64,000 nt of DNA. Source: Psilocybe cubensis (taxonomy: Eukaryota). Both the position numbers and the translations under genes were made by a program. The notes beneath the pieces were generated by a model. The model was not told the DNA's origin. It made no database searches and saw only the letters and a program-made list of their open reading frames with translations. Of the stretch, positions 4,251 to 41,304 are shown one piece after another (within the stretch, counting starts at the first letter, position 1; the number at the start of each line of letters is the position of its first letter). The stretch covers positions 372,001-436,000 of the forward strand of contig CM039007.1 of NCBI GenBank assembly GCA_017499595.2, written 5' to 3'.

Positions 4251-7200
4251 ATGACCTCCACCATCGATCCGAATACTATTGGCAAACCAGTGCGCCCACG
4301 TCGCCATGTCCGCACTCTCACAGGTTAGCGATCTCGTTCATGTTTGGACATTGTCAATCTTGTTTCTGTCTCACCATCGTGGGCCCATAGGTTATCTTCC
4401 TGAGAAAGACGAAGAAGGACGCGATAAATGGCCTAAGGGTGAAGAAAAGGTCTGGAAAGATGGGATGAGGTCTCTCGATAAGGGTGCGTGCGACAGATCT
4501 ACGGCGTTGCGAGTGGTTCTCATATTTATGCTGCGATGTGGATAAGATGTCAACGATATCACGCGTTCTTTTGTGAACCATGTCCAAACCTCTCTGGCCC
4601 GTCAACCATACAACATTGGTATGCGCATATATGCTCCATTTTCATCGTTGGAAGCTGAAATTTTAGCAAAGATGACCTCGGTGCATACCATGCTGCCGCT
4701 CTCTCCACACGAGACAATCTTTTGGTAAATTGAGTCTTTTTTGAACGCATATATGTACTCATACTTGCATCTCCCACGCCAGGTAAACTGGAACGATACC
4801 CAGCTAACATATACTCGCAAAGCCCCTAAACGAGCTTACTATCTTTCACTGGAGTTTTTGATGGGGCGAACTCTCGATAACGCTGTAAGTTTTGTAACCC
4901 CTATCTACTACAGCGCATATATCTCATCGCATCTTAGCTCCTTAACCTGGGGCTTAAAGATGAATATAAACAAGGTGTCCGCAAGCTCGGATTCAACATT
5001 GAAGATATCCTAGAGCAGGAGAGAGACGCCGGTTTAGGAAATGGTGGACTTGGTCGCCTCGCTGCCTGCTATCTTGACTCTTCCGCCTCTCAAGAGCTTC
5101 CTGTCTGGGGTTACGGTCTGCGATACAAGTACGGTATCTTCCAGCAGCTTATTTCTCCCTCAGGAGACCAGCTTGAGGTCAGATCCACAATGACGCTTTG
5201 AAGTGACGATGTTCTTCTGACATGACATACAGGCTCCTGACCCATGGCTGGACAATCAAAACCCATGGGAACTCCCCCGTCTTGACGTCACCTATCAAAT
5301 TAGATTCTACGGACATGCCGACAGACTCGACGATGGAACTGGGCGTGCTTTATGGCAAGGCGGACAGGAAGTCCTTGCACAGGCGTATGATGTTATGATT
5401 CCTGGGTATGGAACCCGGTCGACTAACAACTTGAGGCTCTGGGAAAGCAAACCCAAGCGAGGATTCGACTTGAACTCCTTCAATGGTACGCTATTTTCGT
5501 GCTGCTGTTGTGTAATCTGGCCTGACTCAATATGTGCCATGTATAGCTGGAAACTACGAAGGAGCTGTTGAATCGTCCAACAGTGCTCAAGCTATCACCT
5601 CTGTTTTGTATCCCAATGATCATACGTAGGTCTTTTTCTTCATTTCAACACTTTTTCTCTGACAAGCATATTTTTAGGACATGTACGTTCTCTTGCGTTA
5701 TAAACATCTGCATTGCAAATCTTGACATTGTGACATCTTACAGTTGGAAAGGAGTTGAGATTGAAGCAGCAGTAGTACGTGTTCTGGTTTCCGGCAAAGG
5801 TGCCATGGCTTATTCTGTCATTAGCTTCTGGACCGCTGCCAGTTTAGCTGACATTTTGCGTCGCTTTAAGAATCTTAACAAGCATATCCGCGAATTCCCT
5901 GACTGTATGTATCATCCTGGAGTGTAGCAATCGTTTCGTACTGAAAACCTTTTTTATAACAGATGTTGCTATCCAGCTAAACGATGTAAGTGTTTAAAAC
6001 TATGTTCGAGGCTTCGAGGTGTTCATCTATATCCCTTAAGACCCACCCTACTCTTGCCATTCCTGAATTGATGAGAATACTGATCGACGAGGAAGACCTA
6101 AGCTGGGATGCTGCCTGGTCCATCGTCACCAACGTTTTCTTCTATACTAACCACACCGTGCTTCCTGTGAGTTACGCTTTGAATTATGCCTTTCAGCGAA
6201 TGAACCCATACCTTACAGGAAGCTCTCGAAAAATGGCCTGTGCCTTTGTTGGAGCACGTCCTGCCAAGGTTTGTATTATTCGCTCCGCTTCCGTATTGTC
6301 TTTTTCTCATTCCTTTTCTAGACATATGCAGATCATCTATGATATCGTGAGTCTTCCGTGCACCTATGTTCGAATGTTAACTCGTCGCTGAATTCTATTT
6401 GACAGAATCTGTCCGTCTCCTAATTATTTTACCTTTAGGGGTTATTACTGATAGCTCTCTTATACACTTAGGTTCTTCCTCCAAGGTATATCTATTGCCT
6501 ATGAAACCCCGTAGGGCAATGCTGATTCAATGCGCCATTTTAGCTGTTGAGAAAAAGTTCCCTGGAGACCGCGACAGGCTCTCAAGGATGTCCCTGATCG
6601 AAGGTAAACTGTCTGTTTGCTCTGTCTTCAGCAAAAATCTTACGTTTGCTTCAGAGGGCATCCCAAAACAGGTTCGCATGGCGCACCTTGCATGCATTGG
6701 CAGTCGCAAAGTAAATGGGGTTGCCGAGGTGGGTTCCGTTCAAAGTCAGGGGTATTTATATACTGAATACGATCCATCACAGTTGCACAGTGAACTCGTT
6801 CGAACCACTATCTTAAAAGATTTCGTCGAATTTGAGGGAATCAGCAAGTGAGTCGGTTCAACGTCTGTTCCATATTATTTTTCTGATGTTGCCTTTTCCT
6901 AGATTCGGAAACGTTACCAACGGAAGTTAGTTTAAAAACCACATGTTTTTCTATCATTATTTCGATTCTGACGCTCTCTACTCCCAGTCACTCCCCGCCG
7001 ATGGCTCGACCAGGTTGGTAGTGATGACAGACATCTGTATCTTATAAGCATATTAACCAGATTTTAGTGTAACCCAGAACTCAGCGCCCTCATTTCCAAA
7101 ACCCTTAAGCTGGACAAGAGCGTGTGGTTGAAAGACCTCACCAAACTTGAAGGCCTGCTTCCATTTACTGAGGACAAGGCTTTCCGCGACGAGTGGGCAG

Positions 7201-34865: not shown

Positions 34866-35420
34866 GTACCTAAATCGGCAGGCGATGTTCTTCATCTGAA
34901 AGAAAGGATTCTTCATGGGTCAAGAATACAAAGGGGAATAATGTCATTGTTTATTTAGCGGTGTATAATTTATTAGAAACATATTTCCAAGGTCTGATGC
35001 AAGCAGAAAGTCCCGTCCGCAAACTGTAAGGTTCGCCGAACCTTGAAGCTTGAACGTCGAACCGCGAACCGCGAGCCTTGAGGCGCAAACATTGATTATT
35101 GAACAGCGAACAGCGAACCACAAACTTGTTTGTAAAGAACCAAAGAAAGCAGCACAATTTTATAGTTTACCTTTTGTTCTGTTCATTCTCGGGCGCTCTT
35201 GCCATTGATTCCTTTGTTATTTCTCCGCAGTTCTACTGCAGCTTTACTCCTTGTTTCATAGTTCTTATTATGTATGTACAGTAATAGTGCACGCATACAA
35301 AATGTGTGCTTTCGTTCTCTTCGAACCTCAGTCGTTCTGCTCGAACAACGACTGAGCTCGCTACCAGTTTTCTTACATTTATTTCAAACAGAGAAAGAAA
35401 AAAATCCTCGATGTCGAAAA

Positions 35421-38351
35421 CTACTCCAACGCTTCGACATCCTCCTCGTCGTTCCTACCCATATCCAGTTTGCGCTTTTGTCCAGGCATGGCCTTTCCAC
35501 CGCCATAGCCAACACCAGCTTTCTTCCTGAGCACCTCGATGTCCTGCTCTGCCTCCTCGGCCCACTCCAGAACCAAATGTCGTCCGAGGAAATGGGTATG
35601 ACGAAGCGTATTGTACGCATTCTCAGCTTCATGCCGTGACACAAACTCGAGGAATGCAAAGCCGCGTGAGCGCGAGTCGAATTTCTTCGGAAGGCGCACA
35701 GATTTGAGATGACCATGAGCACTAGAAAAGGAATTGAGTCTAGCAAAAATGAATAATAATGAAAAGAAACGCACCCAAACAGATCCCGCATGTCCTTCTT
35801 CGTCGCCTCGAATGGCACATTCTTCACAATCATCTTCGTCGTCCTGCTCTTCCCTGCATCGACCTTGCCTTTCTTTTCAGCCTCAGCCTCTTCCGCACCT
35901 CTACCAGCGAAGGAGACATGCAGCGCATGACCATCTAGCACAAACCCTTGTACACTCTTAAGAGCCTTCTTGGCGCTCTCGGGATCCTTGAAGCCCAAGA
36001 ACCCATATCCCATGCTGAGACGCCCATCCGGCCGTTTGGGATCCGGCTTTGTCTGCACCCGCGCAAAGGAGAACGAAGGCAGATGTGAAAACACCTTTAC
36101 GAGCCGTTCCTGCGTCGTGGAGAATGCCAAGTTCTTGACGTACAACGTTGACCCGCCTGCGATCGACGGTTCTTCCACATCGTCCGTATCGTCTGCTGCT
36201 CCCACTTGTTCTGGAATGCGCACGGCGTGTGCAGCTGTTGTCGTAGGTGCCGATGCTGTGCCTTTGGTAGGTGGCACGAATCCCTCTATGAACATCCCTA
36301 GCGGGCCTTTCTCGAGATACACCACCGAGTTCCCGAGCCGTCTATACGCAACCGCCCTGAATGCTTTCGCCGCCTCATCCGGTTTCTCAAAGTCCACCAC
36401 GGCCATCGTCCCAGCAGGAGGAATCAGCACGCGGGCAAGTTCGCCATGAGGCTCAAACATCTCTCTAATCTGCTCTTCAGACGTCCCGTAAGGAATGTTC
36501 TTGACCAGGATCGTCGTATCTGAACGTGCTTTAGAACTGAATGCAGATAGCAATACACCTTGAGACTCGAGGTACGACTTTGTTTCCTGGATGATATGTG
36601 TTTCGGCGAGAGCCAGCTTCACAGCGGCATTATCCCCACTTTCTGGATTCAAGATCTCCGATTTATCGATATTCATTCGTGCGGCGATTGAAGAAGCAAC
36701 AGCATCACTCTAGAGAAAAAAGAAATGGACAAAAAGAAATTTTATTGGAATGTGTTACAAAAATTGTATAAGCTAGAAAGCTACGTACATTCATGTACAA
36801 CATGCTCCAGTTAAACTCCTGTCCCGCCATCGCCTTCCTCTTCTGGTTTTTCTCTTCCTTTAAACTCTTTTTATGACCTTCACCCTCTTGTACCTCTGGC
36901 TTTCCCTTCCTATCAACAGCCGCAAGGATGTGGAGCAGACGCCCCTGGAACGATCTCTTGTCAAGAGCCTCGTAGGCGGCTAGGGCATCAGTGGGTTTAG
37001 CGAAAGTGACATAAGCGAGTCCTTTATGCTGCTTCGTAGTTGGGTCGCGAGGAGTGTGTATCTAAAGAAAGATAGAATATGATTAGAAATGTCGTTGAAG
37101 AATAATCATAATCATCAAAAAAAAATCAGAAATATTTCTACTATCGGTTTTCCCAAAGGATCAACATGCCCGAAGGTCTGATGTCCCTATTTGGTTTATG
37201 CATCTTGGAAAGCAAAAAGAATGGAAAAGAATGTTTACCTAGAAGGAAAATAATGAGTTAGCGAGCGAGTTCGATGCATAAAAGTAGAAGAGAATAGGAA
37301 AGGATCAGAATAAATTTCTACTATCGGTATTCCACAAGGATCAACATTCCCGAAGGTCTGATGTCCCTATTTATGTGTCATCTTGTCGAAATTGCGTACG
37401 CAAAAGGAGGACGAACAGAAATAAACCGAGTCTCACCTGAGATATTTGTCCAAAGGGTTCGAATAGCTCTCTAAGCTCTTCGTCAGTACATGAAAAAGCC
37501 AAGTTACGGACAAAAAGTCGCGCTGTCTGGAGAATAGTTTCTTTAGTTGGGTCAACGGGTTTAGAAGCATCGGCGGTCGCAGGTTGAGTGCCCTGCTTCG
37601 AAATGGAAATAAAATTAGACAAAAACCTTCACAGAGAAACAACTCATGCGAACACCTACCTTTTGAGATTCAATTGCATTGACAGGCTTTCCCCCATCCT
37701 CTTCGTCTTGTTCAAAGACTCTCTCCTCAACAACTTCGTCAACGACAGCAGCAGACATTCTCTGGCGCATCCACTCTATGTCTGACATGGTACCTTGAGC
37801 CTCGGCATCTTCGGGGGCAGGTACAACTGAAGGCGTAGGCTCAGCTGGCATAATCGGAACAGGAGTAGCGGCCTCATTCGCCCATGCAGGCCCTTTCTTC
37901 TTCTCCATGAGTTTCATGAATTCCTCACGGTTCTTGTCGCTCTTCATAGGTGACTTCTGGTCTTTTGTGACTGACGATGGAGTAGTGGAATCGGAGTATG
38001 ATGTTGAGGGGTCCAGGCGCTGTCGTTTCCGGGGTCTAGGAGCGTCTGCTGCACCCTGTTGGATATTGAGCAACTATACAATATATAAAGAGAAAAAAAG
38101 CGCACCTCAGAAAAGCTAACATTAATTCTTGTCGAATCAATAAACGTCCTGTCAAACCATTTCTGCGCCTTCTGTGCTTCTGCCTCCGACTTGAATCCAA
38201 CGAATCCAAAACGTCTTGACGTGCCATCTGACTTTGAAGAGACTTTCACATCGGTGAGGGTCCCGCCTGGGCCTCCCTTCTGCTCAAAGTGCTCCCGGAG
38301 TCTCGCTGGCGTCACATACACCGGTAAATTTTTGATAATGAGGCGAGACAT
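35421..38351 (-). CDS. MRD1: Multiple-RRM pre-rRNA processing protein Mrd1 (RBM19 ortholog)
   Basis: MSRLIIKNLP..SRRFGFVGFK; TARLFVRNL; FQGRLLHIL; FNWSMLYMN; AAVKLALAETHII; TILVKNIP; LSMGYGFLGF; IVKNVPFEAT; HFLGRHLVLEWA. Confidence 0.95.
37126..37206 (-). ncRNA. snR64: Box C/D snoRNA, snR64/SNORD74-like, copy in the 3' half of the MRD1 intron (box C to box D coordinates)
   Basis: Minus strand: variant box C AAGAUGC, guide AUAGGGACA, D' CAGA, CC-UUCG-GG stem, C' AUGUUGA, GAUAGUAGA, box D CUGA. The guide is antisense to conserved LSU rRNA UGUCCCUAU. Confidence 0.8.
37231..37262 (-). other. Candidate recursive splice site / zero-length exon
   Basis: Minus strand GCTAAC branch point (37262-37257), pyrimidine tract, TAG (AG = 37240-37239) directly followed by the donor-like GTAAAC (GT = 37238-37237). 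Confidence 0.7.
37305..37384 (-). ncRNA. snR64: Box C/D snoRNA, snR64/SNORD74-like, copy in the 5' half of the MRD1 intron (box C to box D coordinates)
   Basis: Minus strand: variant box C AAGAUGA, the same guide, D', UUCG hairpin, C', second antisense element and box D as the other copy. Confidence 0.8.
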
Positions 38352-38568
38352 CGACACAGACGTCTTTAATGGCGATTAGCTATGGAAAAAACCAAACAGA
38401 AGGAGAACAACAAAATACGGACCTGGGAGATTTGTTCAGAAGAAAAAATGCACGGAATTTATACGCTTGACCCTATTTTAGACTCCGATCGGGTATCGCC
38501 GTCTGCCCACGCGCGTGCTATCAATCGTCCTGAATCAGCTGCACACCACCTCAGTCTCGGCGAGTTCA

Positions 38569-41019: not shown

Positions 41020-41304
41020 TAGGCCATTACCTACATGCCATGACCGCTTCGATTCACCCAGTCACTTATCTGACAAACGGTGCGAAAGTTCCTGATCCGA
41101 CGTGGAGGGATGGGCCAAGATAGAAGCCAATCCGGATGCAACAATCCACGCCTCGCCTAACCCAAATGAAGATTCCAGAATCCGTATGTAAAATCCAATG
41201 TGCCTATTTTCGTTCACGAGGAGCTGGTGGGGTATATAACATCTAATCACCCTTCCAGTTCCGCTTTGCCCCTCTCTAGAAGCCCACCCTTTCACTGACC
41301 TGAC

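Follow-up and report, generated by a model that had tools for sequence, protein, structure and literature searches.

Two abutting introns, each with a snR64/U74-type snoRNA paralogue, probably meet at a zero-length exon in an MRD1/RBM19-like gene of Psilocybe cubensis

A 64,000-nucleotide (nt) stretch of Psilocybe cubensis DNA (assembly GCA_017499595.2, contig CM039007.1, positions 372,001 to 436,000), referred to here as the window, carries on its minus strand a gene encoding RNA recognition motif (RRM) domains, whose coding sequence is interrupted by a 375-nt gap at positions 37062-37436. This gap is most likely composed of two complete, abutting spliceosomal introns of 198 and 177 nt that are separated by a zero-length exon, each harboring one paralogue of a snR64/U74-type box C/D small nucleolar RNA (snoRNA) placed 42-46 nt upstream of its own branch point. 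This reading is based on the anatomy of the locus, on RNA-derived contigs from which all 375 nt are missing and on the long-term conservation of an internal branch-AG|GT arrangement. The introns, their junction and the snoRNA copies listed below were read from the sequence, and further support is given with the entry concerned; X1 and X2 are sequencing runs described below.

37437-37598, minus strand: last stretch of the upstream exon (...FEPFGQISQ), where an RRM domain begins to be encoded; pieces of the X1 and X2 contigs end or join at 37437, and Pfam RRM_1 positions 1-26 are matched.
37239-37436, minus strand: intron A, 198 nt, with donor GTGAGA (37436-37431), CTAAC (37261-37257, branch point A at 37258), a pyrimidine tract and acceptor TAG (37241-37239); an equivalent unit is conserved in relatives.
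37305-37384, minus strand: snoRNA copy A, about 80 nt, with box C AAGATGA (37384-37378), D' guide plus D' box ATAGGGACATCAGA (37370-37357), extra element GATAGTAGA (37325-37317) and box D CTGA (37308-37305); weak Rfam matches.
37233-37241, minus strand: zero-length exon junction, where the TAG of intron A is fused to the GTAAAC of intron B (37238-37233), with the cut between 37239 and 37238.
37062-37238, minus strand: intron B, 177 nt, with donor GTAAAC, CTAAT (37086-37082, branch point A at 37083) and acceptor TAG (37064-37062).
37126-37206, minus strand: snoRNA copy B, about 81 nt, with the box C variant AAGATGC (37206-37200), D' guide plus D' box (37190-37177), GATAGTAGA (37145-37137) and box D CTGA (37129-37126); weak Rfam matches.
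36789-37061, minus strand: downstream exon (IHTPRDPTTKQHKGLAYVTF...; remainder of the same RRM domain); a contig piece joins it to 37437, and Pfam RRM_1 positions 30-70 are matched.

Four exon pieces of the host gene all match Pfam RRM_1, and the 375-nt gap sits in the second RRM-coding region, interrupting a single RRM between positions 26 and 30 of the profile. Read on the minus strand, the upstream exon closes with ...CCCTTTGGACAAATATCTCAG, with ...ATCTCAG at 37437 followed by GTGAGA, and the downstream exon restarts with ATACACACTCCT after the TAG of intron B. Among the solved structures matched, the RRMs of RBM19 gave the most specific names (2cpf, 1.2e-16; 1whx, 1e-17); PABP scored higher overall, and nucleolin was matched as well. 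An MRD1/RBM19-like host is plausible from these similarities, the name MRD1 itself having been taken over from an earlier note on this DNA.

Assembled contigs drawn from a set of five sequencing runs of one organism were compared with positions 35300-38500 of the window. Two of these runs, X1 and X2, belong to one study and are presumed to be RNA. The contigs from both join 37061 directly to 37437, with all 375 nt removed and CT..AC ends (GT..AG on the gene strand), which is the exon join that the earlier note had claimed from the reading frame. The joints within the same gene skip 53, 79, 375 and 50 nt, and the 375-nt gap is 5-7 times as long as its neighbors, in line with the roughly sixfold excess given in the earlier note. 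Contigs from two further runs (X3 and X4) are colinear with the window DNA. No contig from X1 or X2 reaches into the interior of the intron. Since assembled contigs drop rare forms and cannot show splicing intermediates, lariats or an 80-nt RNA, these data have no bearing on whether the gap is removed in one step or in two. In a 1272-nt contig from X3 (36772-38043), all 11 differences from the window fall outside 37062-37436. As a sign of constraint on the double intron this pattern is a weak hint at most, as the numbers are small and chance or haplotype structure could account for it.

The statements of the earlier note on the splice signals, the split into 198 and 177 nt and the lack of any exon between the two parts all hold. 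At the internal junction, a CTAAC with its own pyrimidine-rich stretch is followed after 19 nt by the end of a TAG, which runs directly into |GTAAAC. The two halves are barely alignable beyond a snoRNA-like core of about 80 nt, within which a direct repeat of 59 nt with 93% identity recurs at a spacing of 180 nt (37134-37192 and 37314-37372), one repeat per half. The distance from box D to the branch point A, each within its own half, is 46 nt for copy A and 42 nt for copy B; one snoRNA copy per half and a distance of about 40-50 nt had already been noted. The composite CTRAY-N(6-28)-YAG|GTRA was found only once on both strands of the 64-kilobase (kb) window (128 kb in total), and this single occurrence is the internal junction. 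Block shuffles gave an expectation of 2.8 +/- 1.6 per 128 kb, which amounts to about 0.002 for the 107-nt spacer, and shuffling of the window's own spacer gave a composite frequency of 0.005.

Both snoRNA copies contain the GATG core of box C and the CTGA of box D, and the 14-mer ATAGGGACATCAGA and the 9-mer GATAGTAGA are identical between them; the last box C base of copy B is non-consensus, and the copies diverge around box C and in the internal loop. Matches to Rfam were considered at several levels. At the gathering thresholds no match was obtained in the whole window, and an E-value scan over 15 kb returned nothing beyond a microRNA match that most likely arose by chance (mir-3613 model, 41093-41157 on the minus strand; E = 0.37, 23.7 bits, threshold 91). 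The informative matches came from a 401-base scan and fall below the gathering thresholds. They are to snR64 of yeast (20.1 bits for copy B and 16.6 for copy A; threshold 38), TtnuCD23 of Tetrahymena (24.2 bits for copy B and 23.3 for copy A; threshold 70) and Afu_335 of Aspergillus (14.9 bits for copy B; threshold 50), with matched spans of 37303-37389 for copy A and 37113-37211 for copy B. The guide region ATAGGGACA followed by T and CAGA aligns to (G)AUAGGGACAnCAGA of the Rfam snR64 and TtnuCD23 families and to the guide of Afu_335. The copies and the three families have in common the guide (G)AUAGGGACA, separated by one free base from the D' box CAGA, as well as a downstream (GA)UAGUAGA and the terminal CUGA. 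On the basis of this guide homology, and not of the model scores, both copies are read as putative snR64/U74-type box C/D methylation guides. A snoRNA of this type from Neurospora crassa, Nc CD36, is described as a 90-nt intronic snoRNA with a D' guide and a 10-nt duplex for one 26S cytidine, and has been equated with snR64, plant snoR44 and human U74 (PMC2780460). Yeast snR64 is also reported to be one of 13 yeast snoRNAs with a conserved extra ribosomal RNA (rRNA)-complementary element beside the methylation site (PMC3116282), and the invariant GATAGTAGA fits an extra rRNA-pairing element of this type. By homology, the two copies would use the D' guide to direct 2'-O-methylation at a single cytidine of the large-subunit rRNA.

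To compare the locus with its relatives, metagenome contigs were scanned once with two guide motifs, which yielded 66 loci, and flanking exons were sought by tblastn with two exon peptides from the window. These contigs carry no taxonomy, and the breadth of clades was judged from sequence divergence. At least one flanking MRD1-like exon was present in 58 of the 66 loci. When two or fewer substitutions were tolerated in the 14-nt core, 28 of the 67 sources (the 66 loci and the window) contained a single copy, 35 contained two and 4 contained three. An alignment of both exon borders was obtained for 39 sources; ten loci were dropped where the tblastn match stopped short of the borders, and one (L056) for a wrong upstream match, and several of the dropped loci were examined by eye. 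Within this border-aligned set, AG|GT lies between the copies in 30/30 sources with at least two strict copies, and no AGGT occurs anywhere in the intron in seven of the nine single-copy sources. The two remaining single-copy sources, L018 and L037, have an AG|GT upstream of the copy that bounds a short unit without a snoRNA.

The number and state of the units vary among these relatives. Three abutting units are found in L027 and in L030/L032/L046. In L027 (snoRNA strand, 1380-1846) the first copy is without the D' box and the extra element, and in the three-unit cassette of L032 the guide of the first copy is ATGGGGACA. Units with a decayed snoRNA persist as separate small introns, namely in L018 (62 nt, with a TGATGA remnant), as the first unit of L013, as the third of L009 and as the first part of L037. 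A different outcome is seen in L022 (274-497, between MRD1-like exons), where a single intron contains CCGATAGTAGAAA twice, 10 nt apart, before box D and has no AG|GT. From its sequence, L022 looks like the recombinational collapse of two units between their copies, by which the AG|GT would have been lost with the second copy.

The decayed copies in relatives bear on whether copy B of the window is still a working snoRNA. Intron B could be real and separate while copy B is a decaying pseudogene and copy A alone is functional. The final C in place of A in box C of copy B would fit such decay, as would the GATGT or GATGC found in downstream copies of several relatives and the decayed copies in L008, L011/L017, L048 and L009. 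However, the two copies in the window do not differ in the 14-nt guide plus D' box or in GATAGTAGA, their 59-nt core retains 93% identity while the flanks are saturated, the GATG core of box C and the CTGA of box D are intact, and second copies are conserved across lineages. We consider a pseudogene in intron B unlikely.

Conservation of the internal junction was examined in 43 adjacent copy pairs from 39 sources, the window included. AGGT is present in the spacer of all 43, and CTRAY lies 6-28 nt upstream in 42; the only pair without the strict branch motif, in L013, has TTGAT/CTCAC instead. Shuffling of each spacer produced AGGT in 4-25% of trials and the branch-AG|GT composite in 0.4-2.3%. 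Because the loci share ancestry, raw pair counts are inflated, and the data were therefore reduced to non-redundant sets. In the first of these, comprising 24 junctions with windows less than 80% identical, AG|GT is found in 24/24, a pyrimidine at -3 in 22/24 and a purine at +3 in 22/24. In the rows of L011 and L017 the anchor fell on a second AGGT, displaced 5 nt in the 3' direction, which puts their +3 to +6 letters off. Ungapped identity outside positions -30 to +6 is 0.31 in this set. The two rows were re-anchored in the second set, which takes one source per cluster and comprises 23 junctions from 21 non-redundant lineages. Here the composite is kept in 23/23 junctions and the strict branch motif in 22/23, with a median of 19 nt from the branch point A to AG (12-24) and of 44 nt from box D to the branch point A (35-63). 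The branch motif of the last unit is often non-consensus in relatives. In the 15 two-unit lineages, the tails of units 1 and 2 show an identity of 0.57, compared with 0.55 for shuffles, and the snoRNA cores are 79% identical.

Nothing but the snoRNA and the splice signals has been retained amid saturated surroundings. These comparisons argue for selection on the internal acceptor and donor, and on this comparative evidence we regard the internal splice signals as being under selection. The same alignments indicate a duplication that is ancient and common to many lineages, not a local event. The check across related mushrooms proposed in the earlier note came out in favor of its parsing, with AG|GT in every multi-copy pair and in every non-redundant junction (43/43 and 23/23) and no internal AG|GT in the complete single-copy introns (7/7 loci). 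Its proposal of a tandem duplication of a whole snoRNA-bearing intron is qualified in that the tails at shuffle level beside cores of 79% identity place the event far back.

The gap could also be one ordinary 375-nt intron that is removed in a single step from 37436 to 37062, with both snoRNAs cut by endonuclease and exonucleases from one lariat or from the pre-mRNA and with the internal branch-AG|GT left as an unused relic of the duplication. The outer joint is indeed the only one seen in the RNA-derived contigs, and GTAAAC is weak, as are internal donors generally. A relic would nevertheless be expected to decay like its surroundings, with tails at shuffle level and flanks at 0.31, yet AG|GT is kept in 43/43 pairs and the strict branch motif in 42/43. 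The distance from box D to the branch point A is held at 35-63 nt in upstream units too, decayed units remain as separate small introns, and the collapsed single-copy L022 lost its AG|GT together with the second copy. Moreover, without use of the internal site, the sole remaining branch point would be over 220 nt away from copy A. Single-step removal as the sole route is thus very improbable.

For two abutting introns, we infer that the internal site is used at this locus, with an order to the reactions, and that both snoRNAs accumulate and function. The two introns would be excised in separate reactions. As the upstream unit is transcribed complete first, it is expected to leave first; the upstream intron would then most plausibly be removed co-transcriptionally, placing the exon end CAG before GTAAAC. 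Two lariats would result, and each would be debranched and trimmed by exonucleases down to the snoRNA protected in its small nucleolar ribonucleoprotein (snoRNP). A general debranch-and-trim pathway and a rule of one snoRNA per intron are described in a review of the field, and the position of the snoRNA relative to the 3' splice site is reported to matter (PMC2780460). The fixed distance between box D and branch point, in upstream and downstream units alike, would reflect the demand of a splicing-coupled assembly step. Because the mRNA would be the same as after removal of a single intron, the protein would be unchanged. The doubling of snoRNA output proposed in the earlier note would follow by inference.

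Several observations weigh against this account. Splicing intermediates, lariats and mature snoRNAs were not seen at the locus, the contigs showing the final joint only. The 43 pairs, and even the 21 lineages, share ancestry and are statistically non-independent. In a maximum-likelihood tree of 55 snoRNA copies (32 sources, one per cluster), 28 of the 52 forks are open, and most of its structure is unsettled; the tree supports only local orthology of first or second copies, plus recent extra duplications in L027 and L032, and gave no decision between one ancient duplication and several. As for the snoRNAs themselves, the final A of box C is replaced by C in copy B (AAGATGC), the Rfam scores are far under the gathering thresholds (20.1 vs 38 for snR64; 24.2 vs 70 for TtnuCD23), and folding of copies A and B is no better than that of shuffles (z = +0.76 and +0.79), with no terminal stem evident. 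Finally, the internal donor of the window, GTAAAC, is without the usual G at +5 and is weak by consensus, and across the relatives internal donors have G at +5 in 9/23 cases, compared with 22/24 for exon-adjacent donors (Fisher p = 1.8e-4).

In the 23 internal donors, G at +5 and T at +6 never occur together. The hexamer GTAAAC recurs in L027. Elsewhere in the window, GTAAAC is the donor of a candidate 51-nt intron at 6604-6654 on the plus strand, with a branch-like CTTAC and the acceptor CAG, whose removal would restore a phosphorylase-like frame; the use of this donor at 6604 had been claimed before and fits the predicted intron. By this reading, GTAAAC seems to act as a donor at other places in the genome as well. 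One exon-adjacent donor, in L052 (snoRNA strand, border around 855), is CAG|GCAAGT, a GC donor. The first reaction would bring no obvious strengthening of the internal donor by "regeneration", since the YAG at -3 to -1 is nearly the same before and after it.

The combination of weak internal donors (9/23 vs 22/24 with G at +5) and strict internal branch motifs (22/23) would also fit the use of both routes, in which part of the transcripts lose the gap in two steps and the others in a single step, with the weak internal donor setting the ratio and tuning the amount of each snoRNA. Candida snoRNA polycistrons are reported to reach the same product by more than one splicing pathway (PMC5033589). 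Weak donors may, on the other hand, simply be tolerated in short, intron-defined fungal introns, and we give a mixture of routes little credence compared with two-step removal. Avoidance of a clash between U1 and U2AF at the fused site and tuning between one-step and two-step routes are both possibilities for the origin of the weak donors. A broader proposal, which we advance tentatively and consider doubtful, is that the MRD1 site holds an ancient snoRNA cassette able to expand and collapse, made up of one to three self-contained introns joined by zero-length exons, in which strict branch and acceptor signals paired with a deliberately weak following donor would enforce ordered 5'-to-3' recursive splicing. 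Assembly of each snoRNA would then take place at a constant distance from the branch point of its own unit. Were this a general rule, recursively spliced short basidiomycete introns, including the 210 + 165 nt intron of Cryptococcus BOT1, would all be snoRNA cassettes.

Similar arrangements have been described in other fungi. One is found in BOT1 (CNAG_07884) of Cryptococcus neoformans, for which Burke et al. (10.1101/224170) report a 375-nt intron split into 210 and 165 nt at a zero-nucleotide exon, with the junctions and branches of both halves seen. It shares with the present locus a basidiomycete protein-coding host, the same total length and nearly the same split; it differs in the gene concerned and in two extra 3'-end peaks that were read there as premature transcripts (10.1101/224170). 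In a table of extracellular-vesicle RNA, intron reads of CNAG_07884 far exceed exon reads (PMC6115741, Table 3). The BOT1 intron may be a snoRNA cassette of the same kind, a possibility for which this table is only a lead.

In Schizosaccharomyces pombe, Chen et al. (10.1101/226894) report a zero-length exon in a 336-nt intron of SPNCRNA.445, the host of snoRNA61, from spliceosome profiling. As in the window, a snoRNA-host intron of a fungus has a 3' splice site directly beside a 5' splice site; the sites are described as conserved in sister species, and full removal was found by reverse transcription PCR. That host is non-coding and its sites are marked by direct 5'-P/3'-OH peaks, whereas the present introns interrupt a coding RRM, are known from sequence and carry paralogous copies of one snoRNA. 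In the Candida clade and Debaryomyces hansenii, snoRNA polycistrons (snR57-55-61 and snR41-70) are likewise reported to have internal exons of 1 or 0 nt, and the process was termed recursive splicing (Donovan et al. 2016, PMC5033589; Luo et al. 2013, PMC3596301). Their likeness to the window lies in one box C/D snoRNA per intron with exons shrunk to one or zero bases. Unlike the present protein-coding host with tandem paralogues of one family in one to three units, the hosts in these ascomycete yeasts are non-coding and combine different snoRNA families.

The AG|GT composite is also shared with the ratchet points described in Drosophila and vertebrates, where it lets the 5' exon re-splice from a regenerated donor. 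Those introns are tens of kb long and are shortened stepwise, whereas the pieces here are under 200 nt and each contains a snoRNA. In view of the S. pombe, Candida clade, D. hansenii and Cryptococcus cases, the statement in the earlier note that recursive AG|GT sites are known mainly from very long animal introns is out of date. Spliceosomal twin introns (stwintrons) of filamentous ascomycetes resemble the locus in having two U2-type introns within one intervening sequence that are removed consecutively. In stwintrons, however, the internal intron interrupts the donor, branch or acceptor of the outer one and the order of removal is obligatory (PMC8469720), whereas here the signals are uninterrupted and the introns abut. 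A stwintron was rejected for this locus, as neither unit has a split element and each possesses its full set of donor, branch motif and acceptor.

Given these fungal precedents, one of them in a basidiomycete, the mechanism is not new, and the locus is a well-conserved new example of it. Features particular to this case are the position within a coding RRM, tandem paralogues of one family, the series of one to three units and the asymmetry of weak donors. In our search of the literature, no description of a snoRNA in an MRD1 intron and no account of intronic snoRNAs in Agaricomycetes was found; the main text of "The fungal snoRNAome" (PMC5824354) mentions neither snR64 nor host genes. The locus is a clear natural illustration of the principle that each intronic box C/D snoRNA requires an intron and a branch point to itself: a complete splice-site pair without an exon was retained between the copies after the snoRNA duplication while the surroundings changed. 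For annotation, the arrangement means that gene models and RNA-seq junctions will show one long intron, hiding the internal site and the two snoRNAs. Relatives with one, two and three units, together with units with decayed snoRNAs, provide material for studying the coupling of splicing and snoRNP assembly in fungi and the reason why internal donors are weak.

Eight of the 66 loci have no MRD1-like exon. Six of these (L002, L004, L060, L062, L064 and L065) are AT-rich and Tetrahymena-like, contain a compact version of the snoRNA very near the Rfam consensus of TtnuCD23 and are probably ciliate DNA. The other two, L033 (around 2390-2700) and L049 (around 725-1035, both on the snoRNA strand), harbor the same snoRNA in an apparently non-MRD1 host, where a branch motif and CAG|GTAAAT precede it. 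This may be another abutting upstream intron, and the upstream unit may contain a different box C/D snoRNA.

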